Source: an uncultured bacterium (lineage in GTDB: Bacteria; Patescibacteriota; JABMPQ01; CAVVCK01). Taken from it: a DNA stretch of 64,000 bases. The position numbers and the translations under genes are program-made. Positions 14,980-56,533 of the stretch are shown one piece after another. The stretch is taken from positions 19,050 through 83,049 of the forward strand of contig CAVVCK010000001.1 of assembly GCA_963746775.1 (NCBI GenBank). The letters are read 5' to 3'. Within the stretch, counting starts at the first letter, position 1. Each line of letters begins with the position of its first letter. The notes under the pieces were generated by a model, which searched no databases, was not told the origin of the DNA, and saw only the letters and a program-made list of their open reading frames with translations.

Positions 14980-15618
14980 TTAATTTTTTAAATAATTTAC
15001 AACATCTTTATATTTTATTGGACCAGATCTAATTAATTTTATTTTTTTATCACTTAAATCAATGATGGTTGATGATCTATTTTTAGACAAAATTCCAATA
15101 TCAACAACCAAATCTGGCTTATTTTTCTTCTTTTTGTATTGTCTAAAAATCGCTTCAGCTGAATATGAATCTTTTTCTCCTGATATATTAGCACTTGTAG
15201 CTGAAATTGGAAAATCTATTTTTTCCATCACTTTTTCTATAATCTTACTTTTCGGCATTCTTAGCCCAACCGAATTTCCTCCAGCTAATAAAATAGTAGG
15301 TAATTTCTCCTTCTTTTGCGCAATTATTGTCAATCTCCCTGGTAAAAATTTATTGAACAATTTTTTTGTTCTTTTATCTATTACACTGTACTTCTTAGCC
15401 TGAGCAATATTTTTTACAATAATAGATAATGGTTTTTTCTTATCTCTGTCTTTTATTCTATAAATCTTATTTATAGCCTTTGAATCTAGAGCATTTACAG
15501 CCATTCCATAAGAAGTGTCTGTAGGCAAAACAACTACTTTCCCCCTTTTTAAGTAATCCACAATATAATTAATCTTTTTTTTATCAATTCTTTCAGGATC
15601 TATTTTAATTACTTCCAT
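14980..15618 (-). CDS. tsaC: L-threonylcarbamoyladenylate synthase (TsaC/YrdC/Sua5 family)
   Basis: YrdC-fold signatures: LPTDTSYG, KxR, and SATSANISG. Confidence 0.75.
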   Translation of the reverse strand: MEVIKIDPERIDKKKINYIVDYLKRGKVVVLPTDTSYGMAVNALDSKAINKIYRIKDRDKKKPLSIIVKNIAQAKKYSVIDKRTKKLFNKFLPGRLTIIAQKKEKLPTILLAGGNSVGLRMPKSKIIEKVMEKIDFPISATSANISGEKDSYSAEAIFRQYKKKKNKPDLVVDIGILSKNRSSTIIDLSDKKIKLIRSGPIKYKDVVNYLKN

Positions 15619-16333
15619 AATTATATTCTTTCTCTATAAAATTTTCTAAATTTTCTATATCTTCTGGTTTTCCAAAATCTTTCCAATAATCTTCTAAATT
15701 CTTTACTTTAACCTTCTTTTCTTTAGCTAATATATTTACTGCATCTGTTATTTCATACTCTCCTCGCTCAGACTTACCTACTTTGTTTATTGCTTCAAAT
15801 ATGTCCGCAGTAAATTTAAAAAGATTTATATTAACTAGATTACCATAAAATTCTTTCGGTTTTTCAATAATTTTAGTTACAAAGTCTCCTTCTATATTTA
15901 AAACACCATATAACTCAGGATTTTTACTTTCAAAGCCTGCTACATAACAAAAATCATCCTCTATTCTAAAAGCTTCTAAATCTTTTGAAGAATATAAATT
16001 ATCACCATTTACAGAAACAAAATCTTCATTTCCAATCAAATCTTTTGCGCTTAAAATAGGACAAACTGTACCGTATCTTTCTTCTCCTAATTTTTCAAAC
16101 TGATTAACTGTTTGAATACTACTATCATAATCTTTTAAAAATTCCTCGACCTTTTCGCTTTTATAACCAGTTACAACAATAATCTCAGAAAAACCTGCCA
16201 ATTTTATATTTTCTAATAAATAATACAAAAAGGGTTTTCCTCTAACCTCAAGTAGTGGTTTGGGAATATCTTTAGTTAAATCCCCCATTCTAGTTCCCCT
16301 ACCTGCTGTTGATATAACAATTTTATTAATCAT
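15605..16333 (-). CDS. Sugar-1-phosphate nucleotidyltransferase (NTP_transferase fold)
   Basis: N-terminal G-x-G-T-R motif STAGRGTRMGDLTKDIPKPLL. Its 3' end overlaps the tsaC start. Confidence 0.7.
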   Translation of the reverse strand: MINKIVISTAGRGTRMGDLTKDIPKPLLEVRGKPFLYYLLENIKLAGFSEIIVVTGYKSEKVEEFLKDYDSSIQTVNQFEKLGEERYGTVCPILSAKDLIGNEDFVSVNGDNLYSSKDLEAFRIEDDFCYVAGFESKNPELYGVLNIEGDFVTKIIEKPKEFYGNLVNINLFKFTADIFEAINKVGKSERGEYEITDAVNILAKEKKVKVKNLEDYWKDFGKPEDIENLENFIEKEYNYGSN

Positions 16334-16335
16334 AG

Positions 16336-19300
16336 CTATATATTTAGACCTTCAGCTAATATATTTAATAATCTGTCTTTTACTAAAATTAGTTTATAAA
16401 CTTTTTTACCCTCTAAATACTTTTCAATTTTGCCTTTTTTTTGGGCCATTTGATAAATTTCTGAATCAGTTAATCCACGTTTTGCTATTATTTTATCTCT
16501 AAATTTGCCATTAATTTGAATAATTATAGTAACCTTATCTTCTTTTATCAATTTATCATTATATTCAGGCCATTTTTCTTTAAAAATGCTTTCTTTATTT
16601 TTATCCGCTGAAGTTTTAACGGAAGCGGAGCCCAATTTTTCCCATAATTCTTCTGTAATATGAGGTGCAAAAGGCGACAAAATTAATAAAAACTTCTCTA
16701 AAGTATATTTTGTAATTTCCTTATTTTCCAATAATTTATTTAATAAAACCATCATGGAAGAAATGGCTGTATTAAAATTAAAACTTTCAATATCTTCAGT
16801 TACTTTTTTAATTGTTTTATGAAGTAACTTTTTAATTTCTAAATTTTCATCTTTTGAACTAGGGGTTTGATTTTCTTCATATAAATTCCAAACCCTATCT
16901 AAAAATCTCCTAATTCCTTTAATGCTCTGCGTATCCCAAGGCTTAACCTCTTCAAAAGACCCCATAAACATTTCATACATTCTTAAAGTATCCGCTCCAT
17001 ATTCTACCACCACTTCATCAGGATTAATTACATTGCCTCTAGACTTGCTCATTTTTTGATGATCTTCTCCTAAAATCATCCCTTGATTTTTTAATTTCTG
17101 GAAAGGTTCATCATGATCTACTTTAGAATTTATTTTTATAAATCCTAAATCTTTTAAGGCTTTATAGAAAAATCTAGCGTAAATCAAATGCAAACAAGCA
17201 TGTTCTGCTCCCCCAACATATAAATCAACTGGCATCCACTGCTTTAATTTTTTATTGTCAGCAAATTTTTCTTTATTTTTAGGATCGCAATATCTTAAAT
17301 AATACCAAGAAGAACAAACAAAAGTATCCATAGTATCTACTTCTCTTTTTACACCCTCAGAAGCTCCACATTTTGGACATTTAACCTTATGAAAGCTTTT
17401 AGAATCTTTCAAGGGAGATTCGCCAGTAGGCTTAAAATCAACATCTTCCGGTAATTTTACCGGCAATTGTTCCTCCGGAACCGGAACCTCGCCACATTTA
17501 TCACAATAGATTATAGGAATAGGCGCTCCCCAATAGCGCTGTCTAGATATTAACCAATCTCTTAACTTGTAATTAGTAGTAATTTTTCCTCCTACTTTTT
17601 CCGTAATTTTCTTCTTCGCCTCCATAGAATCCATACTATTAAACTCATCTGAATTAGTTAAATTTCCAGTACCTGCATAAACCTTCTCTCCATTTAACAA
17701 AATATTCATATACCATTCATGACTATTCAAATTAATATATTTTTCTAATTTATCTTTTTCTATCCATTCTTCTTTATGGTGTCTAACATGCTCTTCTTCT
17801 GGCTCTACATACTCCCCATCTGCTAATTCTACATAATACCCCTCTAGAATTGTGTCCCTATTTACCCCCTTATGCATAGCATAAAATTTAGTAGCAATCT
17901 TACCTCCTAATTTTTTTATAGACTTTATATTTTGATAACCAGATTCTTCCTTCATTTCCCTTATAGCTGCTTCTTCATAACTTTCTCCATTCTTCACCCC
18001 ACCAATAACAAAAGATTTCCAGCCATATTTGACCCAATCAAGACAATAATATTTATCTTCTTGCCAATGTTTAATTATAACAATTACATTATTTCTTTTT
18101 ACAGTCTCTTTGTCCTCTCTTGGTAGATCTTTTTCAAAATTTGTTTTAAGAAATGGAATTATAACTTGTTTAATTGGTATGTTATATTTTTTAGCAAATT
18201 CAAAATCCCTTTCATCGTGAGCTGGTACCGCCATTATTGCTCCTGTTCCATAGGAAGATAGAACATAATCAGCTATATAGATTGGTATTTCTTCTTCATT
18301 TGCTGGATTAATAGCCTTAACGCCTTTAATTTGAACACCCGTCTTTTCTTTTTGCAACTCTGTTCGTTCTAAATCAGACTTACCTTTTGCTTGCTCCTTA
18401 TATTTATAGATTTCTTCTAAATTCTCAATTCTAGATTCTAAATTCTTAATTAATTCATATTCAGGAGCTAAAACCATATAGGTAGCACCATATAGCGTAT
18501 CTGCTCTGGTAGTAAATATTTTTATATTTGGAATAATATTTTTTAAAATAATGGGTTCTTTTTCACCATTAAAATGACTACCTTGAGTCTCTGATTCAAT
18601 AAGTTCAGCATTTAATTCCCTGGATAAAGTTTTCCCTTCTTCCCTGGGCACTGCATGATCATTAAGAGAGCTTAATATTTTAATAAAGCCAGCTTTTTTC
18701 TTTATATCTTCATAATCATAATCCCAATTGAATTTATCTTTAAATGGTCTATCTATATCTTTAAATTTAGCCTTTGTAAAACCTCCTGCCAAAACCAACC
18801 TAGTAATATTATGAGGTAATTTTTCTACTACTTTCATAGCCACTACTGCCCCTAAACTATGACCAAATAAAATAGTACTTTCACTAAATTTAATATTTTT
18901 TAAGACATAATTGACTTGTTCTTCTTCTGTGGGATTATCAGAATTAGGCATATCGGGTACATCAACTTTGTAACCTCTATTTTCTAGTTCCTTTTTTAAC
19001 CAAGGGAAAAAATTGCTTTTAGAATTACTACCAAAACCATGTAACAAAACAAAATGAAAATCAGATTTTACTTCGAAATCTATTTCAGAACCTTCTGATC
19101 TTCCTATCCACTCCCTCTGCATTAATTTAATAGGCTCCGGCCAATCCATATTGTCTAAATCATCAAGCAATCTTTGTGCATATTTTGTAGTTTTAAAAAA
19201 CCATTGCTTTAAATCTTTTTGAATAACTTCATTCTTACAACGTTCACATTTTCCATTTATTACTTGTTCATTAGCAAGTACAGTCTTGCAAGATTCACAC

Positions 19301-19773
19301 CAATTAACTGCTGCCTTCTTTTTGTAGGCCAAACCATTTTTATATAATTGCAAAAATATCCATTGCGTCCATTTATAATATTCTGGATCAGAAGTAGCTA
19401 TTTCTCTGTCCCAATCATAACTAAAACCAAGAGACTTTATCTGTCTTCTGAATGTTTTAATACTATCTCCTGTTGTTTTTTTAGGATGTACTCCTGTTTT
19501 TATAGCATAATTTTCAGCTGGCAATCCAAAAGCGTCCCAACCCATTGGATGCATTACTTCTCTGCCCTTCATCCTCATATATCGAGAAAAAATATCTGTA
19601 GCTGTATAGCCTTCTGGATGACCAACGTGAAGTCCAGCAGCTGAAGGATAAGGAAACATATCTAGACAATAAAATTTCTCTTTTTTAGAATTATCATCAG
19701 CTTTATATAATTCTTCTTCCTCCCATTTCTTTTGCCATTTTTTCTCTATTTTCTTTGGATTATACTTTCCCAT
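16336..19773 (-). CDS. leuS: Leucyl-tRNA synthetase with two inserted accessory domains (alpha/beta serine hydrolase and Nudix)
   Basis: HVGH (HIGH) and KMSKS motifs. Editing-domain motifs TTRADTLYGATYMVLAPE and GTGAIMAVPAHDERD. Extra domain at about aa 235-412 carries GHSLG (a GxSxG motif; RBBP9/YdeN-like serine hydrolase). Extra domain at about aa 540-697 carries the Nudix box GGVKNGESYEEAAIREMKEESG. Total 1145 aa, versus about 800-870 for a typical LeuRS. Confidence 0.9.
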   Translation of the reverse strand: MGKYNPKKIEKKWQKKWEEEELYKADDNSKKEKFYCLDMFPYPSAAGLHVGHPEGYTATDIFSRYMRMKGREVMHPMGWDAFGLPAENYAIKTGVHPKKTTGDSIKTFRRQIKSLGFSYDWDREIATSDPEYYKWTQWIFLQLYKNGLAYKKKAAVNWCESCKTVLANEQVINGKCERCKNEVIQKDLKQWFFKTTKYAQRLLDDLDNMDWPEPIKLMQREWIGRSEGSEIDFEVKSDFHFVLLHGFGSNSKSNFFPWLKKELENRGYKVDVPDMPNSDNPTEEEQVNYVLKNIKFSESTILFGHSLGAVVAMKVVEKLPHNITRLVLAGGFTKAKFKDIDRPFKDKFNWDYDYEDIKKKAGFIKILSSLNDHAVPREEGKTLSRELNAELIESETQGSHFNGEKEPIILKNIIPNIKIFTTRADTLYGATYMVLAPEYELIKNLESRIENLEEIYKYKEQAKGKSDLERTELQKEKTGVQIKGVKAINPANEEEIPIYIADYVLSSYGTGAIMAVPAHDERDFEFAKKYNIPIKQVIIPFLKTNFEKDLPREDKETVKRNNVIVIIKHWQEDKYYCLDWVKYGWKSFVIGGVKNGESYEEAAIREMKEESGYQNIKSIKKLGGKIATKFYAMHKGVNRDTILEGYYVELADGEYVEPEEEHVRHHKEEWIEKDKLEKYINLNSHEWYMNILLNGEKVYAGTGNLTNSDEFNSMDSMEAKKKITEKVGGKITTNYKLRDWLISRQRYWGAPIPIIYCDKCGEVPVPEEQLPVKLPEDVDFKPTGESPLKDSKSFHKVKCPKCGASEGVKREVDTMDTFVCSSWYYLRYCDPKNKEKFADNKKLKQWMPVDLYVGGAEHACLHLIYARFFYKALKDLGFIKINSKVDHDEPFQKLKNQGMILGEDHQKMSKSRGNVINPDEVVVEYGADTLRMYEMFMGSFEEVKPWDTQSIKGIRRFLDRVWNLYEENQTPSSKDENLEIKKLLHKTIKKVTEDIESFNFNTAISSMMVLLNKLLENKEITKYTLEKFLLILSPFAPHITEELWEKLGSASVKTSADKNKESIFKEKWPEYNDKLIKEDKVTIIIQINGKFRDKIIAKRGLTDSEIYQMAQKKGKIEKYLEGKKVYKLILVKDRLLNILAEGLNI

Positions 19774-19785
19774 AATTAAAATTTA

Positions 19786-20544
19786 TTATAAATTAAAAAA
19801 TTTAATTGCATTATTTGTGGTAATCTTAGCTACTTCTTCAAAACTTACTCCTTTTATTTCAGCTACTTTCTCAGCCACATACTTTATATAAGCTGGTTCA
19901 TTTCTCTCTCCTCGATAAGGTTCTGGCGCTAATAGAGGCGCATCTGTTTCAATCATTATCCGATCCAGAGGAGTGGCTTCCACTGCTTTACAGGACCCAA
20001 TATCATAAGTAATAAGCCCAGTATAGGATATAAATAATCCTTTTTCAATAATACTACTTACCTTTTTGTAGCTTGAAGAATAGCAATGAATAACTGCCTT
20101 ATTTTTATGCCAATCATATTTACTTAAAATATTCATGACATTTTCAAAAGCATCTCTTATATGTAAAATTACCGGCAGCTTTAATTCTATAGCTAAACTA
20201 AGTTGTTTTTCAAAAACTTCTATTTGCTTTTCTTTTGAAACACTACCCGCATGATAATCAAGCCCTATCTCTCCAATAGCAACTACTTTTTTACTTTGTG
20301 CTATTTTTCTAAATAAATTCAAAACTTCTTCATCCAACACCAATGCTTCCTCTGGATGAATGCCTATAGCAGCATATACACCTTCATATTTTTTAGCTAA
20401 TTCTGGTCCTTTTTTAGAACCTTCTAAAGATGCGCCTATAGTTATAATTTTTTCAACTTGATTTTTACGTGCTCTATTTATAACTTCTACAAGATCATTT
20501 TCATAATCTTCCAGATCTAAATGAGCATGGGTATCAATTAACAT
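19786..20544 (-). CDS. tatD: TatD-family metal-dependent deoxyribonuclease
   Basis: N-terminal IDTHAHLD; conserved His and Glu TIM-barrel residues. Commonly linked to metG. Confidence 0.85.
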   Translation of the reverse strand: MLIDTHAHLDLEDYENDLVEVINRARKNQVEKIITIGASLEGSKKGPELAKKYEGVYAAIGIHPEEALVLDEEVLNLFRKIAQSKKVVAIGEIGLDYHAGSVSKEKQIEVFEKQLSLAIELKLPVILHIRDAFENVMNILSKYDWHKNKAVIHCYSSSYKKVSSIIEKGLFISYTGLITYDIGSCKAVEATPLDRIMIETDAPLLAPEPYRGERNEPAYIKYVAEKVAEIKGVSFEEVAKITTNNAIKFFNL

Positions 20545-20559
20545 CTATTTAAATTATCC

Positions 20560-20590
20560 CGCGCTTGCCCGCCGAAGAGGCGGATCTATC
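20560..20590. repeat. Copy of small GC-rich palindromic element (REP-C: TGCCCGCCG-N-AGAGGCGG)
   Basis: cttgcccgccgaagaggcggatc is near-identical to segments at 42403 and 45972, and related to 44806 and 45781. Confidence 0.4.
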
Positions 20591-20606
20591 CGCCTGTATT
20601 ATCGAA

Positions 20607-20948
20607 TTAACAAGTTAAATGGAAACAACCAATTACTTGAACACTCTCTTTTTCTAATTTATTATATTCCTCAACCGCACCATTAGTATTTTTGGCAATA
20701 AAATCTATTTTATTTTTCTTAACATAATCTAACACCTCTGGCATAATTCTCATTTTCCCATCTTGACCAGTACCAATCACAACTACTTCCGGCTCACTTT
20801 TTAATACTTTCTCTATGTCGGATAAAGTTAGTTTATGACCATCTTCTCGCCACCAATTTTCGCTAACTGATTTTGGTGTAACAATAACATCTGTATTATA
20901 AGTTTTGCCATTGATAGTAATTGAGCTAAATTGATATTTTTCTATCAT
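20607..20948 (-). CDS. Mth938-like (DUF498) domain protein
   Basis: Pattern ITINGKTY..DVIV...WW...HKL...PEVVVIGTGQ resembles the Mth938/NDUFAF3 fold. Confidence 0.45.
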   Translation of the reverse strand: MIEKYQFSSITINGKTYNTDVIVTPKSVSENWWREDGHKLTLSDIEKVLKSEPEVVVIGTGQDGKMRIMPEVLDYVKKNKIDFIAKNTNGAVEEYNKLEKESVQVIGCFHLTC

Positions 20949-20952
20949 AAAA

Positions 20953-22449
20953 TTAGATACGTGGAAATAACATTATTCCCTCTTTTATTTTTTCTATCCT
21001 AAATTTTCTCCATTGCTTAATTTCATCAAATGCTAATTTTTTATCATCCAAACATCCAATTTGTTCAATAATTTTATTAGAGGTATCTGGCATAAAAGGA
21101 TTAATCATAAAAGCAATGTGCCTGATCATTTCTAGAAGTGAAATCATTAGACTAGAAAATTCTTCTTGATTGGTTTTCTTTAACTCCCAAGGTTTTTTTT
21201 CATCAATATATTTATTACCAAAATCCATCAAAGCTCTTACGCTATTTAAACTTTTATCAATTTTAAAATCATTCATTGTTTCTGTATATTCCGTCCAAGC
21301 ATTTAGAGTCTTTTCTTTTATTTTCTCATCAATTTTAACCTCAGAATTCTCTACGCTTTGAGCTAATTTTAATACTCTACTAAATAAATTACCTAAATTA
21401 TTAGCTAATTGATTATTATATTGCTCATCAAATTTGTCTGCTTTTATATCACCATCTTGACCAAAAGGAAATTGAGATAATATTAAATATCTAGCTGCAT
21501 CTGCCCCATATTTTTCAATTAAATCATTGGGGTCTATTACATTACCTATAGTTTTACTCATTTTCTGTCCATCTATAGTAAAAAATCCATGAGCAAAAAT
21601 CGTTTTAGGCATAGGTAGGCCTGCAGCTAAGAGCATTGCTGGCCAATAAATAATATGAAACTTTATAATGTCCTTGGCCATCAATTGTACATCTGCCGGC
21701 CAAAACTTATTAAACATTTCTTGATCATTTTCATACCCTATAGTAGAAATATAAATTTGTAAGGCCTCTATCCAAACATATGAAACCTGATTTTCATCAA
21801 AAGGAAGTTTAATTCCCCATTTTACTGATTCCCTAGATATAGAAAAATCTTGCAAATCTTGCTTAAATAAACCCAGCACTTCTTTCTTAATATGCTCTGG
21901 CTCTACTTTTATTTCATTTGATTCTATTTTCTCCTTAACTTCTTTTAAATAATCTTTTAGCTTAAAAAAATAATTTTCTTCTGAAATTTTCTCTGGTTTT
22001 TTTTGATGATCTGGACACTTGTTATCAACTAGTTCTTTTTCTGTTATAAATTTTTCACAACCCGTACAATAAAGTCCTTCGTATTTATCCATGTATATAG
22101 CATCTTTATTCTTTAATAGAGTATAAAATTTTTCTACAGATTTTTTATGTTTTTCATTGGTGGTTCTAGCAAAAACATCATTAGAAATATTTAGACTGTC
22201 CCAAGTTCTCTCAAACCTTGCAGCCACTTCATCGCAAAATATTTGAGGCTCTTTTCCAGCCTTCTCTGCTGCCTGAGCAATTTTAGCACCATGCTCATCA
22301 GTTCCAGCCAAAAAAAATACTTCTTTACCCAATAAACGATTATAGCGCGCCAAAACATCAGCCGCAATCGTAGTATAGGCATGTCCTATGTGTGGCTTAT
22401 CATTTACATAATATATTGGTGTGGTGATATAGAATTTATTTTTATTCAT
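20953..22449 (-). CDS. metG: Methionyl-tRNA synthetase (short form, no C-terminal tRNA-binding domain)
   Basis: PIYYVNDKPHIGHAYTT (HIGH) and KMSKTIGN (KMSKS). CxxC...CxxC zinc knuckle. 498 aa. Confidence 0.9.
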   Translation of the reverse strand: MNKNKFYITTPIYYVNDKPHIGHAYTTIAADVLARYNRLLGKEVFFLAGTDEHGAKIAQAAEKAGKEPQIFCDEVAARFERTWDSLNISNDVFARTTNEKHKKSVEKFYTLLKNKDAIYMDKYEGLYCTGCEKFITEKELVDNKCPDHQKKPEKISEENYFFKLKDYLKEVKEKIESNEIKVEPEHIKKEVLGLFKQDLQDFSISRESVKWGIKLPFDENQVSYVWIEALQIYISTIGYENDQEMFNKFWPADVQLMAKDIIKFHIIYWPAMLLAAGLPMPKTIFAHGFFTIDGQKMSKTIGNVIDPNDLIEKYGADAARYLILSQFPFGQDGDIKADKFDEQYNNQLANNLGNLFSRVLKLAQSVENSEVKIDEKIKEKTLNAWTEYTETMNDFKIDKSLNSVRALMDFGNKYIDEKKPWELKKTNQEEFSSLMISLLEMIRHIAFMINPFMPDTSNKIIEQIGCLDDKKLAFDEIKQWRKFRIEKIKEGIMLFPRI

Positions 22450-22891
22450 TTTTACTTTCTAATAATTTTTTATATGCAAATCCTTTTTTAATCATACGCA
22501 AAGCATTTGGCCACACAAACTTATAATTTTTCGATTCTTCTTCGGTAACCCATTTAAACCGATTGTGTTCATTACTTAACTTTATTTTATCACTATCATT
22601 TTTAATTAAACTAGCAATACCGCACACAGAAGTTCCAATATCAGTATACCAGATATCATAATCAACAACCTCAATTTTATTAAAACTTGAAAAATCTAAT
22701 TCTTCTTTGATTTCTCTCTTAAAAGCTTCCTTGCCTGATTCACCCCTATCTAATCTTCCTCCAGGTAATCCCCAATATCCTAATCTATCGGCAAACTCTA
22801 AAATTAAACACTTATTATCTCTAATCAAAACACCAACCTGACTAATGGTAAATTTTTCAAACTCTTTTGCCATATTATTTTTTACCTTCAA
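22442..22891 (-). CDS. Nudix hydrolase
   Basis: Nudix box GGRLDRGESGKEAFKREIKEELD. Its 3' end overlaps the metG start by 8 nt. Confidence 0.75.
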   Translation of the reverse strand: MKVKNNMAKEFEKFTISQVGVLIRDNKCLILEFADRLGYWGLPGGRLDRGESGKEAFKREIKEELDFSSFNKIEVVDYDIWYTDIGTSVCGIASLIKNDSDKIKLSNEHNRFKWVTEEESKNYKFVWPNALRMIKKGFAYKKLLESKNE

Positions 22892-31949: not shown

Positions 31950-34900
31950 TTATTTTTTTACTCCTAATTTTATTTTCATCTTGTTAATCTCAAATTCTTT
32001 TTCCAAATCCATCTTTCCATTTTCCACTATCTCCTCAGCCAAGACTTCTTTTTTAATAATTGTGCTTATTTCTTCCAGATCTATACCACTAATTTTTATT
32101 TTAATCCTATCTTCAACATTATAACCTGCTTCTTTCCGCATTTCTTGAATATGTCTAATAATATCACGAGCAACACCTTCTTTTTCTAGCTCAGGTGTTA
32201 TATTAGTATCCAAAATAACTACTAATTCCCCGTCAACTTGAATCTCAATATTTTTATGCCCTTCCTTCGACTCATAATTCATTTCCCATTCATCAGATAG
32301 CAATGTATATTTATTTAAAATTAAATTATCACCTGTCACTTTATATTTACCTTGACCAAATAATTTCTGAATTTCTTTCAAATCAGCACCATATTTTTTC
32401 CCTAATATTGGAAAATTCAATTTAACCTTAGTTTCAACATATTTTTCCATCATTGACTTACTTTCAAATTCATCAAATAACTGAACATTTTTCACATTAA
32501 GTTCATTAACCAATAATTTAACCAAATCCTCGCCTAATTTAGTACCACCTATTATTTTTATATCATTTAACGGTTGTCTGGCTTTAATATGAGCTTTATC
32601 ACGAGCAGCATGACCTAGCGTCACAACCCGCAAAACTATATCCATTTCTGTATTTAATTTCTTATCAATTAATTCATTATCAACTTTAGGCCAATCTTCT
32701 AAATGGACTGATTCATTCCCTGTTAAATTTCTATAAATATCTTCAGTTAGAAATGGAAGCATGGGCGATAATATCTTTGATAACTCTATTAAACAAGTAT
32801 GAAGTGTCTGATAAGCTTCTGATTTATCCTTATCATTTTCAGACTTCCAAAATCTTCTACGTGATTGCCTTACATACCAATTAGATAAATTATCAATAAA
32901 TTTCTCCACTTTCTCCATTACCTTGTAGACTCTAAATTCATCTAAATTTTCTTCAGCATTTTTAATTAATTCATGAAGGCTCGAAATAATCCACTTATCT
33001 AATAAATTATTTGATTCTAAATTCTTGATTCCCCCTACGGGGCTCGTAAAGCTAGATTCTTGATTCTCCCATTTATCAATATTAGCATACATAATAAAGA
33101 AAGAATAAGTATTCCATAATGTTATAATCCTCTTTTTAACCTCATCAGCAACTTTATAGCCAAACCTCAAATTAAATTCGGGGTTTTGTGAACAATATAA
33201 AAAGCGCATAATATCTACTCCCATTTTATCGGCCGCCTCATCAAACCAAATAGCATTACCTTTTGATTTATGCATTTCTTCGCCCTTATCATCACGAACC
33301 AAAGAATGACCTAGTAATGTCTTAAAGGGATTGGTATTTTCTAAAACAGTACTCATCGCTATTAACGAATAAAACCAATTTTTAAACTGGCCAGGAAAAC
33401 ACTCCGTAATAAAATCTGCCGGAAACCATTTTTCCCAATATTCATGGTCTTCAAAATATTTCATAGTTGAAAAAGGCACAATACCAGCATCAAGCCAGGG
33501 ATTACCAACATCAGGAATACGTGATATTTTTTTACCGCATTTTGAACATTTAATTTTTACTTTATCAATAAAGGGCTTATGAGGAGAATTTCCTTCAAAT
33601 TCTTCCCATCCCTCTACTGCCTTCTCTTTTAATTCTTTTTTTGATCCAATTACTTCGAAATGTCCGCAAGAACATTCGTAAATAGGTAGAGCCAATCCCC
33701 AATAACGTTTTTTTGATATCATCCAATCATCCATATTTTTCAACCAATCCAACTCTCTATCCAGACCAAAAGATGGAATCCATTTTATCTTTTTAGCTAC
33801 TTCCATCATTTTTGGACGTAATTTATCCATTGATATATACCATTCATTTACTACCCGCCAAACTAACTCCTCCTTACAGCGCCAACAAGTAGGATATCTG
33901 TGGGTATAATTTTGAATTTTAAATAAATATTTACCATTCTCTTTATTCTTCAAATATTCAAATATAATTTTAGGATTTTGCTTAGCATTCTTCCCACTAA
34001 ATTCATTCATCCCATCTAAATAGATGGCTTCATCATTAATAACTGCTATAACTGGCAAATTCTTATCCTTACTTAATTTAAAATCTTCAGCTCCAGCACC
34101 TGGAGCTATATGTACAATACCAGTACCCTCCTCAGCAGTTACTAATTCTTCTGCTTCAATCACAGTATGAAATGTCTGATTATTTTCATCTCTGGCTTCT
34201 TTTACTCTATCTAAATAATCAAAGGGTCCCTCATATTTTAAACCCACCAAATCCCTACCCTTAAACTCTTTTTCTAACTCGTATTCATCTTTTAATACCT
34301 TCTCGGCTAAATCCTTCAACATAATTAAACTTTCTTGGCCATTATTATATAATCCATATTTAAAATCAGGATGAATGGCAACTGCAACATTAGCAGGAAT
34401 TGTCCAAGGTGTAGTAGTCCAAACTAAGAATTTTGTATTTTCAAATTTACTATCTAAAATTGGCAATTTAAAAAATACAGAATCATGCGTTATTTGTTTG
34501 TATTCTTCAGTTAAAATTTCATGCTGTGAAATAGCAGTAGCACATCTCGGACACCAAGGTACACTATCTTTGCCTTTGTATAAATATCCTTTTTCCTTAC
34601 ACTTTTTCAGAAAATGCCAAATAGTATAATTATTAACATCAGACATAGTATAATAGGAATTCTCCCAATCCATCCATTGACCCAATCTTATTGATTGCTC
34701 AGTTTGAATATCTGAATATTTTTTAACCCTATCCTTACATTTTTGTACAAATTCGGCTACCCCATATTCTTCAATATCTTTCTTAGTTTTAAATCCTAAT
34801 TCTTTTTCAACTTCTACTTCCACCCAAAGACCCTGACAATCAAAACCATTTTGATACCTCAAATCATAACCTTGCATAGCTTTATATCTCTGAAAAGTAT

Positions 34901-35096
34901 CTTTGAGAGTTCTTCCCCAAGCATGGTGGACTCCCATAGGATTATTCGCAGTTATTGGACCATCCAAAAAAGACCAAGGCTTATTGCCCTTATTTTTCTC
35001 TTGAAGTTTCTGGAAAGTATTATTACTTTTCCAATAATCTAGAACTTCGTGCTCTAATTTTACAAAATCTTGCTTAGGATTAACGGATTTAAACAT
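31950..35096 (-). CDS. ileS: Isoleucyl-tRNA synthetase
   Basis: A class I HIGH-like region (PMGVHHAWG) and KMSKSKGN. Also has a CP1 editing domain and a C-terminal zinc-binding region. 1048 aa. Confidence 0.9.
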   Translation of the reverse strand: MFKSVNPKQDFVKLEHEVLDYWKSNNTFQKLQEKNKGNKPWSFLDGPITANNPMGVHHAWGRTLKDTFQRYKAMQGYDLRYQNGFDCQGLWVEVEVEKELGFKTKKDIEEYGVAEFVQKCKDRVKKYSDIQTEQSIRLGQWMDWENSYYTMSDVNNYTIWHFLKKCKEKGYLYKGKDSVPWCPRCATAISQHEILTEEYKQITHDSVFFKLPILDSKFENTKFLVWTTTPWTIPANVAVAIHPDFKYGLYNNGQESLIMLKDLAEKVLKDEYELEKEFKGRDLVGLKYEGPFDYLDRVKEARDENNQTFHTVIEAEELVTAEEGTGIVHIAPGAGAEDFKLSKDKNLPVIAVINDEAIYLDGMNEFSGKNAKQNPKIIFEYLKNKENGKYLFKIQNYTHRYPTCWRCKEELVWRVVNEWYISMDKLRPKMMEVAKKIKWIPSFGLDRELDWLKNMDDWMISKKRYWGLALPIYECSCGHFEVIGSKKELKEKAVEGWEEFEGNSPHKPFIDKVKIKCSKCGKKISRIPDVGNPWLDAGIVPFSTMKYFEDHEYWEKWFPADFITECFPGQFKNWFYSLIAMSTVLENTNPFKTLLGHSLVRDDKGEEMHKSKGNAIWFDEAADKMGVDIMRFLYCSQNPEFNLRFGYKVADEVKKRIITLWNTYSFFIMYANIDKWENQESSFTSPVGGIKNLESNNLLDKWIISSLHELIKNAEENLDEFRVYKVMEKVEKFIDNLSNWYVRQSRRRFWKSENDKDKSEAYQTLHTCLIELSKILSPMLPFLTEDIYRNLTGNESVHLEDWPKVDNELIDKKLNTEMDIVLRVVTLGHAARDKAHIKARQPLNDIKIIGGTKLGEDLVKLLVNELNVKNVQLFDEFESKSMMEKYVETKVKLNFPILGKKYGADLKEIQKLFGQGKYKVTGDNLILNKYTLLSDEWEMNYESKEGHKNIEIQVDGELVVILDTNITPELEKEGVARDIIRHIQEMRKEAGYNVEDRIKIKISGIDLEEISTIIKKEVLAEEIVENGKMDLEKEFEINKMKIKLGVKK

Positions 35097-54022: not shown

Positions 54023-54493
54023 TTAAATATTATTAAAAAATGGCAAATTAAACTTGTCTTTTTTATATTCTAAATATAATTCTATATTTTCATAGTGATC
54101 AAAAGCTACTTCATCTTTTTTTGGTAAATCATTAAAATCAAACCATTTAACCTCAGCTACTTCTTTGTCATGTTCACCTGTTTTTTCTAAGGTTTTAACT
54201 AAAAAAATAAAATCTACATTTCCCTTGTCCCTCTTGGGATTTCCATTAATCCTAAATAATGTTACAACCCCAGAGTCATAACCAGTTTCTTCTTTCACTT
54301 CTCTTAAAATTCCTTTTTCTATAGTTTCCCCTTGATCCAAATAACCCCCAGGCAAACAATATAAATTTGGCATATACATTTTAGATGATCTTTTAACTAA
54401 AAGAATCTTATTATCTTTTTCAATAATAGCATTAGTAGTTACGTGTCTAAAATTCAATTTTTTATCACTATTTTCAAAATGACATGTGATCAT
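54023..54493 (-). CDS. Nudix hydrolase
   Basis: Nudix box GGYLDQGETIEKGILREVKEETGY. Confidence 0.75.
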   Translation of the reverse strand: MITCHFENSDKKLNFRHVTTNAIIEKDNKILLVKRSSKMYMPNLYCLPGGYLDQGETIEKGILREVKEETGYDSGVVTLFRINGNPKRDKGNVDFIFLVKTLEKTGEHDKEVAEVKWFDFNDLPKKDEVAFDHYENIELYLEYKKDKFNLPFFNNI

Positions 54494-54571: not shown

Positions 54572-56533
54572 CTAATTCACCCCATGATAGTTATCTATTA
54601 CCGCTATCCCCACTCCATTGCGAAGTGCCTCATCGCCAAAAGCAAAAAAATTAGGCCAGGATCGAAGTTTACCTGAGGGCTCATAAGCTAATACTTGAGG
54701 ACCATTAGAGCCTATGGGAGAGACTAATAATTCATCAACACCGTCTAGATCTATATCTCCGGCAACATTAGTGTAATCACCTCTAATATGTTCTTGATAA
54801 GCCCACCAGAAGTTCTTTCTATTTCCATTTTTGTCAAAGACATTTATTTGGGAAGAACCGTTATTAGGAGTAGTATAGATTCGATCTTGAATACCAGATG
54901 CTGTTAATCCCTGATTAATAGGAGCATCATAAGCCCAAAAGTCTTTCTTGAGAGTACCGCCTACTGTATACATCCAAACTTTAGGTTCAGCTAAACCATG
55001 ATTAGGAGTAATTAGCAGTTCTTCTGCTCCGTCATCATATTGAAATGTACCTAAATTACAGCCAGCAGCACCAAAAGCAGCATCAAATTGGTTAATTAAT
55101 TTCCAGTTATCTATACCAGAAACGTCTCTAAAAATTTTTACTCGCGGATTATAATCTCCTGTCAAACAAAAAGCCGCATCATCTTGATAACCATCATTGT
55201 CAAAATCTCCACTCATTGCAGAGAGACCATCTCTGATAGAAGAATCAAAGACAAATTGTTGTCCTAGGTAGGAAACACTTTTATCTTCTTTAATACCAAT
55301 TACTCTAGCTTGTGGTCCACCATTGTTAATAGCAAAGATTAAAGCTTGATCCTTTACCCCATTATTATTAGCATCAATTGGAACCATACCAGCACCACCA
55401 GCGTAGGAATCAGGAAATAACCCGGTAATAACATCTCCCGTAGCAACACCTTTTCTATCATAGACTTGCGCTCTGGTTACCTCTCCGGGACCAGAAGTAG
55501 TGATTATTTTAGGAGAAATAGTGTTACCTTCTTCAGTGGTACGAGAGGCGGTGTCTTCAGTTGTTGTTGAAGCATCTGAGGAATTATCAGAAGAATCGTC
55601 TGAAGTATCGTCAGAAGAATCATCGGAAGTATCAGAAGAATCATCACTATCATCTCCAGTATCTTCTCCATCTTCACCACTATCTTCATCTTCTAAACAT
55701 ACGATAGGATAGCTGTTATAAGCCCACACATCTCCACTATCCTGGGCTATATAAATATTAGAGGAAGTAGAAGGACAAGAAGATACTACGCTTACACCCT
55801 CTTGACTATCACCTGGTAAATTATAAATATGGACAACCGTACCATCCGGTTCCATTTCCACTAATAAATTAAGAGTATCATAAATAGCATAAACCAATCC
55901 TGTTTCACTATTATAATCTAATCCTGAAATATCCGTGTAAGAATCATTAACGGTAATAGTATCAATATAAGTCACTGACCCACTTGTAGACAAATCAACA
56001 TCAAAGACATATATTTTCCCATCGTATTGTAAGCCAGCATAAAAAAATCCTCCTGAACTGCTATTCTTGTTAGTATAAGGATGCGCACCATTAGGTACAA
56101 AGGTTAAGGCTTCTAATCCTGAATTTGGATCTCCTGTCATCCAAGAGGTTAAATCCCACTGTTTCTCTCCGTAAGCTTTAGTGGATAAATTAAAACTTTT
56201 AATACTATCCGGATTTTCCACACCCACATAAACGTAATCTGTATTTGGATCTGCAATAGCAACACCTTCCAGATCATTACTAGTATCCGACCAGGTGTCT
56301 ACGCCAGATCCATCAATATTTATGGTGGTAATATCTCCGCCATCGCCTACTAAAACTAATTTATCAAGACGACTATGGTAAGCCAGTCCACTTGGTTCAT
56401 ATTCAAACCCTAAATTAGTTCCATCTCCAATAACTACTCCACTGTCACCTGGCCAATCTGCTGCGTATACTGAAATAGAAAATGATAAAATTACAACAAG
56501 AACAAAACTGGTAATTAATTTTAATTTTCGCAT
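54572..56533 (-). CDS. Secreted protein: N-terminal beta-propeller-like domain, acidic D/S linker, C-terminal FG-GAP repeats
   Basis: Signal peptide. Repeated D.EG(V/L) blade-like motifs. Linker DDSDDSSDTSDDSSDDTSDDSSD. FG-GAP-like DFDNDGYQDD and DIDLDGVDELLV. Confidence 0.45.
   Translation of the reverse strand: MRKLKLITSFVLVVILSFSISVYAADWPGDSGVVIGDGTNLGFEYEPSGLAYHSRLDKLVLVGDGGDITTINIDGSGVDTWSDTSNDLEGVAIADPNTDYVYVGVENPDSIKSFNLSTKAYGEKQWDLTSWMTGDPNSGLEALTFVPNGAHPYTNKNSSSGGFFYAGLQYDGKIYVFDVDLSTSGSVTYIDTITVNDSYTDISGLDYNSETGLVYAIYDTLNLLVEMEPDGTVVHIYNLPGDSQEGVSVVSSCPSTSSNIYIAQDSGDVWAYNSYPIVCLEDEDSGEDGEDTGDDSDDSSDTSDDSSDDTSDDSSDNSSDASTTTEDTASRTTEEGNTISPKIITTSGPGEVTRAQVYDRKGVATGDVITGLFPDSYAGGAGMVPIDANNNGVKDQALIFAINNGGPQARVIGIKEDKSVSYLGQQFVFDSSIRDGLSAMSGDFDNDGYQDDAAFCLTGDYNPRVKIFRDVSGIDNWKLINQFDAAFGAAGCNLGTFQYDDGAEELLITPNHGLAEPKVWMYTVGGTLKKDFWAYDAPINQGLTASGIQDRIYTTPNNGSSQINVFDKNGNRKNFWWAYQEHIRGDYTNVAGDIDLDGVDELLVSPIGSNGPQVLAYEPSGKLRSWPNFFAFGDEALRNGVGIAVIDNYHGVN

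Follow-up and report, generated by a model that had tools for sequence, protein, structure and literature searches.

A Leucyl-tRNA Synthetase of Patescibacteria with a Serine Hydrolase and a Nudix Domain Inserted in Its CP1 Editing Domain

Introduction

Why should a bacterial leucyl-tRNA synthetase (LeuRS) contain two further enzyme domains, and do these domains have anything to do with aminoacylation? The question is raised by the leuS gene on a 64-kb stretch of DNA from an uncultured bacterium of the Patescibacteriota (assembly GCA_963746775.1, contig CAVVCK010000001.1, positions 19,050 to 83,049), the whole of which is referred to below as the window. A preliminary description of this DNA, made from the letters alone, had noticed a serine hydrolase and a Nudix domain in the gene product. 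Aminoacyl-tRNA synthetases (aaRSs) are among the most conserved enzymes, and a bacterial LeuRS with catalytic domains inserted in its editing domain would represent a new class of architecture. We report here that the protein appears, from its sequence, to be a bona fide LeuRS carrying an undescribed class of catalytic domain insertions, the newness of which lies in a lineage-wide phenomenon and not in the window gene itself. Nucleotide positions are those of the window, and amino acid numbers refer to the 1145-residue LeuRS.

Results and Discussion

The leuS Gene and Its Synthetase Core

The leuS gene (nt 16336..19773, minus strand) encodes a LeuRS of the bacterial type with two inserted enzyme domains, as judged by TIGR00396, AlphaFold2 and Foldseek, and all parts of the protein described below lie on this strand. 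It forms one open frame of 1145 codons with an ATG start and zero internal stops. The profile hidden Markov model (HMM) TIGR00396 (leuS_bact) scored 1024.1 bits against the whole protein (cut-off 548.4), in four stretches broken by the inserts. The N-terminal catalytic core (aa 1-232, nt 19078..19773), delimited by alignment to Thermus thermophilus LeuRS, contains the HIGH motif in the form HVGH (aa 49-52), the ZN1 cysteines and the first strands of the editing domain CP1 (connective polypeptide 1), which end in SEIDFEV. At the other end of the protein, nt 16336..17682 encode the C-terminal part of CP1, the second half of the catalytic core with the KMSKS motif (aa 907-911), and the anticodon-binding and C-terminal domains, as assigned by alignment and by a match to Anticodon_1 (85.3 bits). 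The HIGH and KMSKS motifs are both invariant over 94 relatives, and the core residues H49, G51, C159 and C176 are invariant among the aligned relatives.

The CP1 editing core (aa ~414-552, nt 18118..18534) was recognized by the editing-domain model PF13603, by alignment and by its invariant residues. It carries TTRADT at aa 421-426 and GTGAIMAVPAHDERD at aa 509-523, which includes AVPAHDERD (aa 515-523). PF13603 scored 187.6 bits, and its model positions 21-145 fall between the two inserts. In 94 aligned LeuRS proteins, with inserts or without, T421, T422, R423, D425, T426, H519, D520, R522 and D523 are all invariant. By these features the window protein is a complete LeuRS with intact synthetase and editing motifs, in agreement with the preliminary description, and the 64-kb window contains no other leuS. 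The base composition of the gene is even, with a G+C fraction of 0.25-0.37 and no step where the inserts begin or end, and an NCBI/ENA record holds the identical LeuRS protein, on a 547-kb contig.

Both Inserts Lie inside CP1

In comparison with T. thermophilus LeuRS (1h3n), aa 1-236 of the window protein aligned to residues 1-237, aa 417-538 to residues 243-362, aa 696-916 to residues 374-593, and aa 907-1142 to residues 637-878. We take CP1 of the T. thermophilus enzyme (1H3N) to be residues ~224-417; since the breakpoints at 237/243 and 362/374 fall within this range, both inserts are inside CP1, and do not flank it as had been proposed at first. Insert 1 (aa ~237-413, nt 18535..19065) occupies the loop that follows the first CP1 strands, here called site 1, and Insert 2 (aa ~553-697, nt 17683..18117) occupies the loop past the HD..D motif, called site 2. 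The first estimates of these borders, nt 18538-19071 and nt 17683-18156, had been right to within a few residues.

Canonical bacterial LeuRS proteins, such as those of T. thermophilus (1H3N/2BYT) and E. coli (4AQ7/4ARC), share the domain order and the motifs of the window protein, with ~45-60% identity in the core blocks, whereas the window protein has ~320 extra residues, two enzyme folds in CP1 loops and no leucine-specific domain. The missing domain corresponds to T. thermophilus residues ~594-636, which have no counterpart at aa ~896-907.

An AlphaFold2 model based on a 94-sequence alignment reached a mean predicted local distance difference test score (pLDDT) of 91.7 and a predicted template modelling score (pTM) of 0.82, with block-averaged pLDDT of ~93-98 across most of both inserts. 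Its secondary structure shows a beta-alpha-beta hydrolase at aa 240-413 and a Nudix sandwich at aa 557-694. Foldseek comparison of the model with solved LeuRS structures, which align to the core only, gave template modelling (TM) scores of 0.81-0.86, normalised to the target.

Insert 1 Is a Serine Hydrolase of the YdeN/RBBP9 Type

The assignment of Insert 1 to the YdeN/RBBP9-type alpha/beta serine hydrolases is supported by domain models, by similarity to a solved structure, by conservation and by the AlphaFold2 model. Ser_hydrolase (PF06821, cut-off 22 bits) matched aa 242-403, scoring 38.2 bits against the full protein and 43.5 bits when the insert was scanned by itself, and the insert was similar to YdeN (PDB 1uxo, E=9.9e-16) and to RBBP9 (E=1.1e-10). 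The GHSLG motif, on which the first assignment to this type had been based, lies at aa 304-308 (nt 18850-18864). It contributes Ser306 to a triad with Asp372 (in LND) and His400 (in GSHF), which align to S75, D138 and H165 of RBBP9, and an oxyanion HG motif is found at aa 245-246. All of 77 hydrolases embedded in LeuRS keep Ser306 and His400, although their overall identity is just 25-45%; Asp372 is present in 72 (94%), with Glu in four, and the HG motif is also conserved. YdeN of B. subtilis (1UXO) and RBBP9 (2QS9, 7OEX, 9FCR) have the same minimal alpha/beta-hydrolase fold of ~180 residues and the same Ser-Asp-His triad; in contrast to these free-standing proteins, the window hydrolase is embedded in a loop of another protein.

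RBBP9 forms acyl-enzyme adducts with a single Leu/Ile, Met, Phe, Tyr or Trp, requires a free alpha-amine and acts on an "amide (or ester or thioester)" (PMC8866121). Such chemistry is what the deacylation of a hydrophobic aminoacyl ester needs, and the idea of a LeuRS-borne esterase is thereby indirectly supported.

A single-sequence search with the hydrolase insert, limited by its word index, returned four matches. A profile search returned mostly free-standing proteins of ~188 aa, and was not informative on hosts among long proteins.

Insert 2 Is a Nudix Domain of a Separate Subfamily

Insert 2 was identified by PF00293, by conservation, and by Foldseek with a model of the domain. NUDIX (PF00293) matched aa 583-682 with 40.8 bits in the full protein and 45.3 bits for the insert alone (cut-off 21.1), so that the models of both inserts score above the Pfam gathering cut-offs. 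The canonical Nudix box seen at the outset, GGVKNGESYEEAAIREMKEESG (nt 17938-18003), extended through Y613 (aa 591-613), is an exact fit to GX5EX7REUXEEXGU, in the form G591-x5-E597-x7-R605 E606 M K E609 E610 S G612 Y613. In a comparison of 44 embedded Nudix domains, no substitution was seen at G591, E606 or G612, and conservation was 89-98% at E597, R605, E609 and E610. R560, [FY][FY]AxHKxxNR (aa 630-639) and W670 form a signature of this subfamily.

An AlphaFold2 model of the Nudix domain alone had a pLDDT of 95.4, and Foldseek matched it to 463 PDB entries at E<=0.001, the listed top 50 of which all have the Nudix fold, with a probability of 1.0. The best solved match was an uncharacterised E. 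faecalis protein (2azw), and NudI, the Ap4A (diadenosine tetraphosphate) hydrolase 3i7u, RppH and MutT scored alike. The Ap4A hydrolases 1f3y and 3i7u were not the closest, their scores not exceeding those of NudI, RppH, MutT or ADP-ribose pyrophosphatases. Solved Nudix pyrophosphohydrolases (A. aeolicus Ap4A hydrolase 3I7U, RppH/NudH, NudI and MutT; 2AZW) have the canonical box and the fold in common with the insert, with target-normalised TM-scores of up to 0.79, but the insert is just 13-22% identical to them and belongs to a subfamily of its own, found almost only inside or adjoining LeuRS.

According to work by Dunn et al. in 1999, the ApnA (Ap4A) hydrolase subgroup is reportedly marked by a Tyr ~16-18 residues past the Nudix box. 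Positions 630 and 631 (+17 and +18 past the box) are aromatic in 43-44 of the 44 copies, being F in 31 and Y in 12 at the former and F in 24 and Y in 17 at the latter; the window protein has F630-Y631. Nudix enzymes of the RppH/NudH type hydrolyse dinucleoside polyphosphates (PMC7705103).

A phmmer search over 1.84 billion representative proteins with the Nudix insert returned 328 proteins at E<=1e-3. Most of the top 150 were LeuRS proteins, whole or in fragments, that carried the domain at site 1, site 2 or a third site downstream of CP1 (site 3), and among these 150 no host of an embedded copy was found other than LeuRS and one prolyl-tRNA synthetase (ProRS). The embedded Nudix subfamily is therefore small and overwhelmingly located inside aaRSs. 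The ProRS (P0205, 643 aa) is a class-II enzyme, and its Nudix domain of the same subfamily (aa ~381-538) lies between the anticodon-binding and C-terminal domains.

Domain Insertions Recur across Patescibacterial LeuRS Proteins

Whether related LeuRS proteins carry such inserts was examined in the 120 best-scoring LeuRS relatives, using HMMs built from the inserts with Pfam spot-checks. About 100 of the 120 hold at least one insert. The architecture of the window protein, a site-1 hydrolase with a site-2 Nudix, was found in 18, a site-1 hydrolase only in 40, and a site-2 Nudix only in 23. A Ham1/ITPase at site 1 combined with a hydrolase at site 2 was found in 11, a site-2 hydrolase only in four, a site-2 Nudix with a site-3 hydrolase in three, and a site-3 hydrolase only in one; 20 had no hydrolase, Nudix or Ham1 domain. 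The Ham1/ITPase (PF01725) proteins (P0085-P0087, P0067, P0082, P0095, P0097, P0100 and P0104-P0106) are LeuRS proteins of ~1200-1240 aa. The recurrent two-insert proteins thus consist of LeuRS with one hydrolase and one nucleotide pyrophosphatase, either Nudix or Ham1/ITPase, in either order, a pairing that may reflect a unit of two activities, one for the aminoacyl and one for the nucleotide moiety.

The named sources of the relatives are all Patescibacteria, also known as the candidate phyla radiation (CPR), and include Komeilibacteria, Doudnabacteria, Uhrbacteria, Moranbacteria, Kerfeldbacteria, Falkowbacteria and Parcubacteria. The names of the closest of them, together with the low G+C content, place the window DNA itself in the Patescibacteria; the window contains no rRNA. 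Assemblies from JGI, ENA, NCBI and Logan encode at least 18 proteins with the window architecture, which is also found in the GTDB loci L001-L004 and L007, and in L005, where the gene is cut by a contig end. In a scan of 80 LeuRS loci of GTDB, the inserts were confined to metagenome-assembled genomes (MAGs) of the Patescibacteria type and a few labelled as DPANN archaea or otherwise; inserts in LeuRS of other phyla were found in 0 of ~40 loci. The architecture, which had not been familiar from standard LeuRS in the preliminary description, is absent from it, and the window LeuRS is one ordinary case of a large, combinatorial, lineage-wide phenomenon seen in hundreds of related uncultured bacteria. 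The MAGs labelled as DPANN (Woesearchaeota, Pacearchaeota or "archaeon"; L005, L007, L035, L036 and L044) have a bacterial-type LeuRS with the same hydrolase and/or Nudix, reflecting either gene transfer from CPR to DPANN, or mis-binning or mislabelling.

Several LeuRS proteins (L032:5962-9417, L006:5821-9936, P0126, P0158 and P0157) have three or four inserted domains, in some cases with tandem hydrolases at site 1. The first of these carries four inserts, namely Nudix, Nudix and hydrolase at site 1 and Nudix at site 2, and P0126 contains the Nudix domain in three copies. These tandem and multi-insert proteins point to repeated in-frame duplication of the cassettes. In four further loci the LeuRS tblastn match extends over 4.8-5.1 kb: L028, L058 and L064 have two large open reading frames (ORFs) ~1-1.4 kb apart, and in L054 the distal 810-aa ORF alone was detected. 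These long spans may reflect an intein, an intron, interruption by a mobile element or a split gene.

The hydrolases of site 1 share only ~25% identity with those of site 2 and fall into a clade apart from theirs, the site-3 copies being divided between clades; the hydrolase thus entered LeuRS at least twice independently.

Constraint on the Inserts and on the CP1 Site

Mean pairwise identity among 17 double-insert proteins was ~0.61 in the catalytic and CP1 cores, 0.46 in the hydrolase insert, 0.40 in the anticodon-binding/C-terminal region and 0.32 in the Nudix insert. The values for the inserts are near that of the anticodon-binding/C-terminal region, indicating a constraint comparable to that on bona fide LeuRS domains. 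This constraint concentrates at catalytic residues, and both inserts are apparently catalytically competent enzymes.

One conceivable role of the hydrolase, compensation for a degenerate CP1 site, was rejected: the editing residues are invariant in the window protein and its 93 aligned relatives. Because they are invariant with or without inserts, the hydrolase is considered an addition to CP1 editing and not a replacement of it. A separate observation concerns L084 (780-1793), a partial leuS that follows a free-standing hydrolase gene (P0123) and has a degenerate T-rich motif, GSYDSVPQTYMAQTF, in place of TTRxDT. It is a possibility, raised by this one partial sequence, that the separate hydrolase compensates for weakened CP1 editing in that lineage.

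The Closest Free-Standing Hydrolases Are Encoded Next to leuS

The nearest free-standing relatives of the hydrolase insert are P0122 (53% identical), P0276 (51%) and P0123 (50%), of 179-180 aa each. We found that each of their genes, on three contig sets, is separated by 4-6 nt from the start codon of a leuS that follows. This leuS is complete and insert-less in two of the sets, encoding 808-809 aa; in the third, L084, the contig ends 338 codons into leuS, and this part has no site-1 insert. A TatD gene precedes the hydrolase gene in two of the three sets. The gene order in L081, MetRS-TatD-hydrolase-LeuRS-Sua5, is the same as that in the window, with the difference that the window hydrolase lies within leuS.

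In a neighbour-joining tree, P0122, P0123 and P0276 nest within the clade of site-1 embedded hydrolases, and generic free-standing CPR hydrolases (P0125, P0369, P0386, P0318 and P0286) form a separate clade. This nesting indicates switches between the embedded and the adjacent-gene state, in which the link to leuS was kept. Similar adjacency was seen for the Nudix domain: a free-standing Nudix (P0160) is encoded 1 nt upstream of leuS, and in L020 a Nudix ORF stands immediately upstream of leuS. A more distant free-standing PF06821 hydrolase, P0292, is encoded 60 nt downstream of a gene of the isoleucyl-tRNA synthetase (IleRS) type. That gene (L093:1-3441; GCA_038063255.1, Patescibacteria) itself has a His_Phos_1 insert at aa 480-644, past the editing domain, with 106 bits.

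Possible Roles of the Inserts

Our preferred reading, held tentatively and with slightly less than even confidence, is that the inserts are enzymes tethered to LeuRS that clean up side-products or analogues of the aminoacylation reaction. The modules would stay physically or genetically linked to LeuRS since they would act on small molecules made or bound there. For the hydrolase, the proposed target is an ester or amide of an amino acid with a free alpha-amine and a hydrophobic side chain, candidate substrates being non-cognate aminoacyl-tRNA(Leu), aminoacyl esters and adenylate-derived products; it would supplement the intact CP1 site without substituting for it. The Nudix domain, or the Ham1/ITPase replacing it in other lineages, would break a pyrophosphate bond in a nucleotide, the candidates being Ap4A/ApnN arising from Leu-AMP and ATP, or damaged ATP analogues that would otherwise enter adenylation. 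In organisms with very small genomes, tethering would ensure that these enzymes and the synthetase are made in equal amounts and that clearance is local.

AlaX, YbaK/ProXp, D-Tyr-tRNA deacylase and CP1 are hydrolases that clear wrong aminoacyl products of synthetases. The concept proposed here is like that of the free-standing trans-editing factors, but the folds are unrelated, the present hydrolase being an alpha/beta serine hydrolase in cis or in an adjacent gene, with a hypothetical action on aminoacyl-tRNA. If the hydrolase does act on aminoacyl esters, it would be a new alpha/beta-hydrolase editing factor and would give the orphan YdeN/RBBP9 family a physiological substrate class. If the Nudix or ITPase domain clears Ap4A or damaged ATP at its source, synthetase side-reactions would be tied to nucleotide housekeeping in minimal genomes. 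The proteins should be readily expressed and assayed, which makes the question directly testable.

Several findings weigh against a clean-up role. The residue that anchors the amine in RBBP9, Glu108, is not conserved in the embedded hydrolases, and the hydrophobic (in part aromatic) cage is partly unconserved, with L103 and F140 replaced; Y99 is Phe in 41 of 58 site-1 copies and L141 is Val/Ile, and Asp339, near the position of Glu108, is kept in 47 of 58 site-1 hydrolases, the loop alignment being uncertain for all of these positions. Since Glu108 and part of the cage are unconserved, though Asp339 is kept, the esterase function deduced from RBBP9 is only suggestive. The substrate of the Nudix domain was not assignable by sequence or fold, its closest matches being functionally heterogeneous. 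The trees are neighbour-joining trees only. About 20 of the 120 close relatives lack a hydrolase, Nudix or Ham1 insert, and some free-standing members adjoin no aaRS gene, as in the case of P0170 after fpg/mutM, P0324 after a HepT toxin gene and P0125 near MazG. Site 1 also takes domains unrelated to any of these, as a merely permissive loop would: P0088 from Falkowbacteria, one of the 20 lacking the three domains, has an IS200-type Y1 transposase there (aa 273-387, 59 bits), and P0050 and P0058, likewise of these 20, have an ANT(2'')-like nucleotidyltransferase (aa ~236-395; PF10706, 24.2 bits, cut-off 21). A nucleotidyltransferase-like insert was also seen at site 2 of P0028, as a weak match of 15.5 bits, below the cut-off.

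Some of these findings bear on the main rival explanation, which we consider possible though doubtful, namely that the inserts are passenger enzymes. On this view the hydrolase and the Nudix, like the Ham1, His_Phos and nucleotidyltransferase domains of relatives, would be ordinary housekeeping enzymes, such as sanitisers of the nucleotide pool and a general esterase/aminopeptidase, that became lodged in unusually permissive loops of CP1. They would work independently of LeuRS, and fusion to an essential gene with constitutive expression would only secure their own expression in a streamlined genome. House-cleaning is the classic role of the NTP pyrophosphatases Nudix and Ham1, and a free-standing member of the embedded Nudix subfamily stands beside fpg/mutM. 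Insertion and duplication appear to be easy, as suggested by tandem copies and up to four inserts per protein, and site 1 holds at least five unrelated domain types, including the transposase and the nucleotidyltransferase; the relatives without insert and the free-standing PF06821 genes common in CPR genomes fit this explanation as well. Against passengers stands the strikingly narrow host range, the embedded Nudix being found in LeuRS and one ProRS with no unrelated host in the top 150 representatives. Other points against them are the entry of the hydrolase into LeuRS independently at different sites, the position of its closest un-embedded relatives directly upstream of leuS, and the lack of inserts in the IleRS and MetRS of the window. 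Even as passengers, the inserts would be of use in protein engineering, as evidence that two loops of CP1 can accommodate whole domains, and would provide a natural setting in which to study how an essential gene undergoes domain insertion and fission.

A broader proposal may be made, which we put forward as speculative and rather unlikely as a whole. In Patescibacteria and possibly DPANN, CP1 of LeuRS, and to a lesser extent ProRS and IleRS, may be a modular docking platform for hydrolytic cassettes that replace one another and move between the embedded and the adjacent-gene state. These would make up a level of quality control in translation, or of defence against inhibitors, that has so far escaped notice and acts on aminoacyl-nucleotide chemistry at the synthetase, and the serine hydrolase would be a new class of cis/trans editing factor for hydrophobic aminoacyl products. 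The cassettes counted in this proposal are the putative aminoacyl esterase, Nudix, ITPase, histidine phosphatase and nucleotidyltransferase. That the LeuRS proteins represent a new architectural class is supported by at least two hydrolase acquisitions, the three sites, the tandem copies, the alternation of Nudix and ITPase, and the adjacent-gene form. We did not find a prior description of LeuRS with these inserts in the open-access and bioRxiv literature. The sequences have been public for years: a relative from a Komeilibacteria MAG of the RIFCSP series is annotated as "hypothetical protein", and Pfam domains are precomputed for such proteins.

Less probable, and in our estimate improbable, is that the inserts protect LeuRS itself by detoxifying aminoacyl-nucleotide inhibitors at their target, such as the toxic moiety of agrocin 84, microcin-C-like compounds or aminoacyl-sulfamoyl nucleosides, with the hydrolase acting on the aminoacyl-nucleotide bond and the Nudix or ITPase on the nucleotide part. 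Natural adenylate mimics do target LeuRS, and LeuRS with TM84 (3zgz) and the agnB2 self-resistance LeuRS (5ah5) were among the structural matches. A precedent for an aaRS with a small-molecule-modifying enzyme is NCBIfam NF040702 (ileS_w_GNAT), likewise a bacterial class-Ia synthetase with such a domain; it differs in that it is an IleRS with a single GNAT N-acetyltransferase at another position, whereas the window protein has a hydrolase pair within CP1 of LeuRS. The ANT(2'')-like nucleotidyltransferase at site 1 in some relatives is of a resistance type, and the patchy, combinatorial, fast-turnover distribution of the inserts recalls defence or resistance genes. On the other hand, no evidence points to such inhibitors in the habitats of CPR bacteria, neither biosynthetic nor immunity genes were seen beside leuS (PADLOC and resistance libraries were not searched), and conservation over many CPR classes is more like housekeeping than an arms race.

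We regard it as very improbable that the inserts are structural, tRNA-binding or protein-docking modules whose enzyme activity is irrelevant or lost. Appended non-catalytic domains are common in eukaryotic aaRSs, and the inserts sit on CP1, a mobile domain that contacts the tRNA acceptor arm; nevertheless, the catalytic triad and the metal ligands of the Nudix box are the most conserved insert positions, which is unexpected if catalysis is dispensable. An artefact, whether a chimeric assembly, three ORFs wrongly joined or a decaying pseudogene, was rejected and has practically no likelihood left in view of the continuous frame, the uniform composition, the identical NCBI/ENA protein, the recurrence of the architecture in independent assemblies and GTDB loci, and the confident fold prediction throughout. 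With this recurrence of the single ORF, and with domain scores above the HMM thresholds, neither of the two refutations named in the preliminary description holds.

Neighbouring Genes in the Window

In the window, leuS belongs to a packed string of genes on the minus strand (14980..22891), in the order Nudix (22442-22891), MetRS, DUF498, TatD, LeuRS, NTP_transferase and Sua5-YrdC, with a spacer of 12 nt between TatD and LeuRS. LeuRS is the only one of the window's LeuRS, IleRS and MetRS to carry inserts: IleRS (31950-35096, 1048 aa) gave one continuous ileS match, and MetRS is likewise without inserts.

The two free-standing Nudix genes of the window (22442-22891 and 54023-54493; 46.8 and 77.2 bits) had been cited in the preliminary description as a sign of heavy use of Nudix enzymes in this lineage. 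The genes do exist, but they are of a different subfamily and say nothing of the lineage's use of the insert Nudix. They scored 27-38 bits against an HMM of the embedded Nudix, largely from the Nudix box, and paralogy of the insert with them was rejected on account of this weak, box-confined similarity. The Nudix gene at 22442-22891 (minus strand) overlaps the start of metG by 8 nt, a further adjacency of a Nudix gene to a synthetase gene, in another subfamily.

An ORF of 653 aa at 54572-56533 (minus strand) has a signal-like N-terminus, a long acidic low-complexity stretch rich in Asp, Ser and Thr, and repeat-like segments rich in Gly and Asp, and probably encodes a surface protein.

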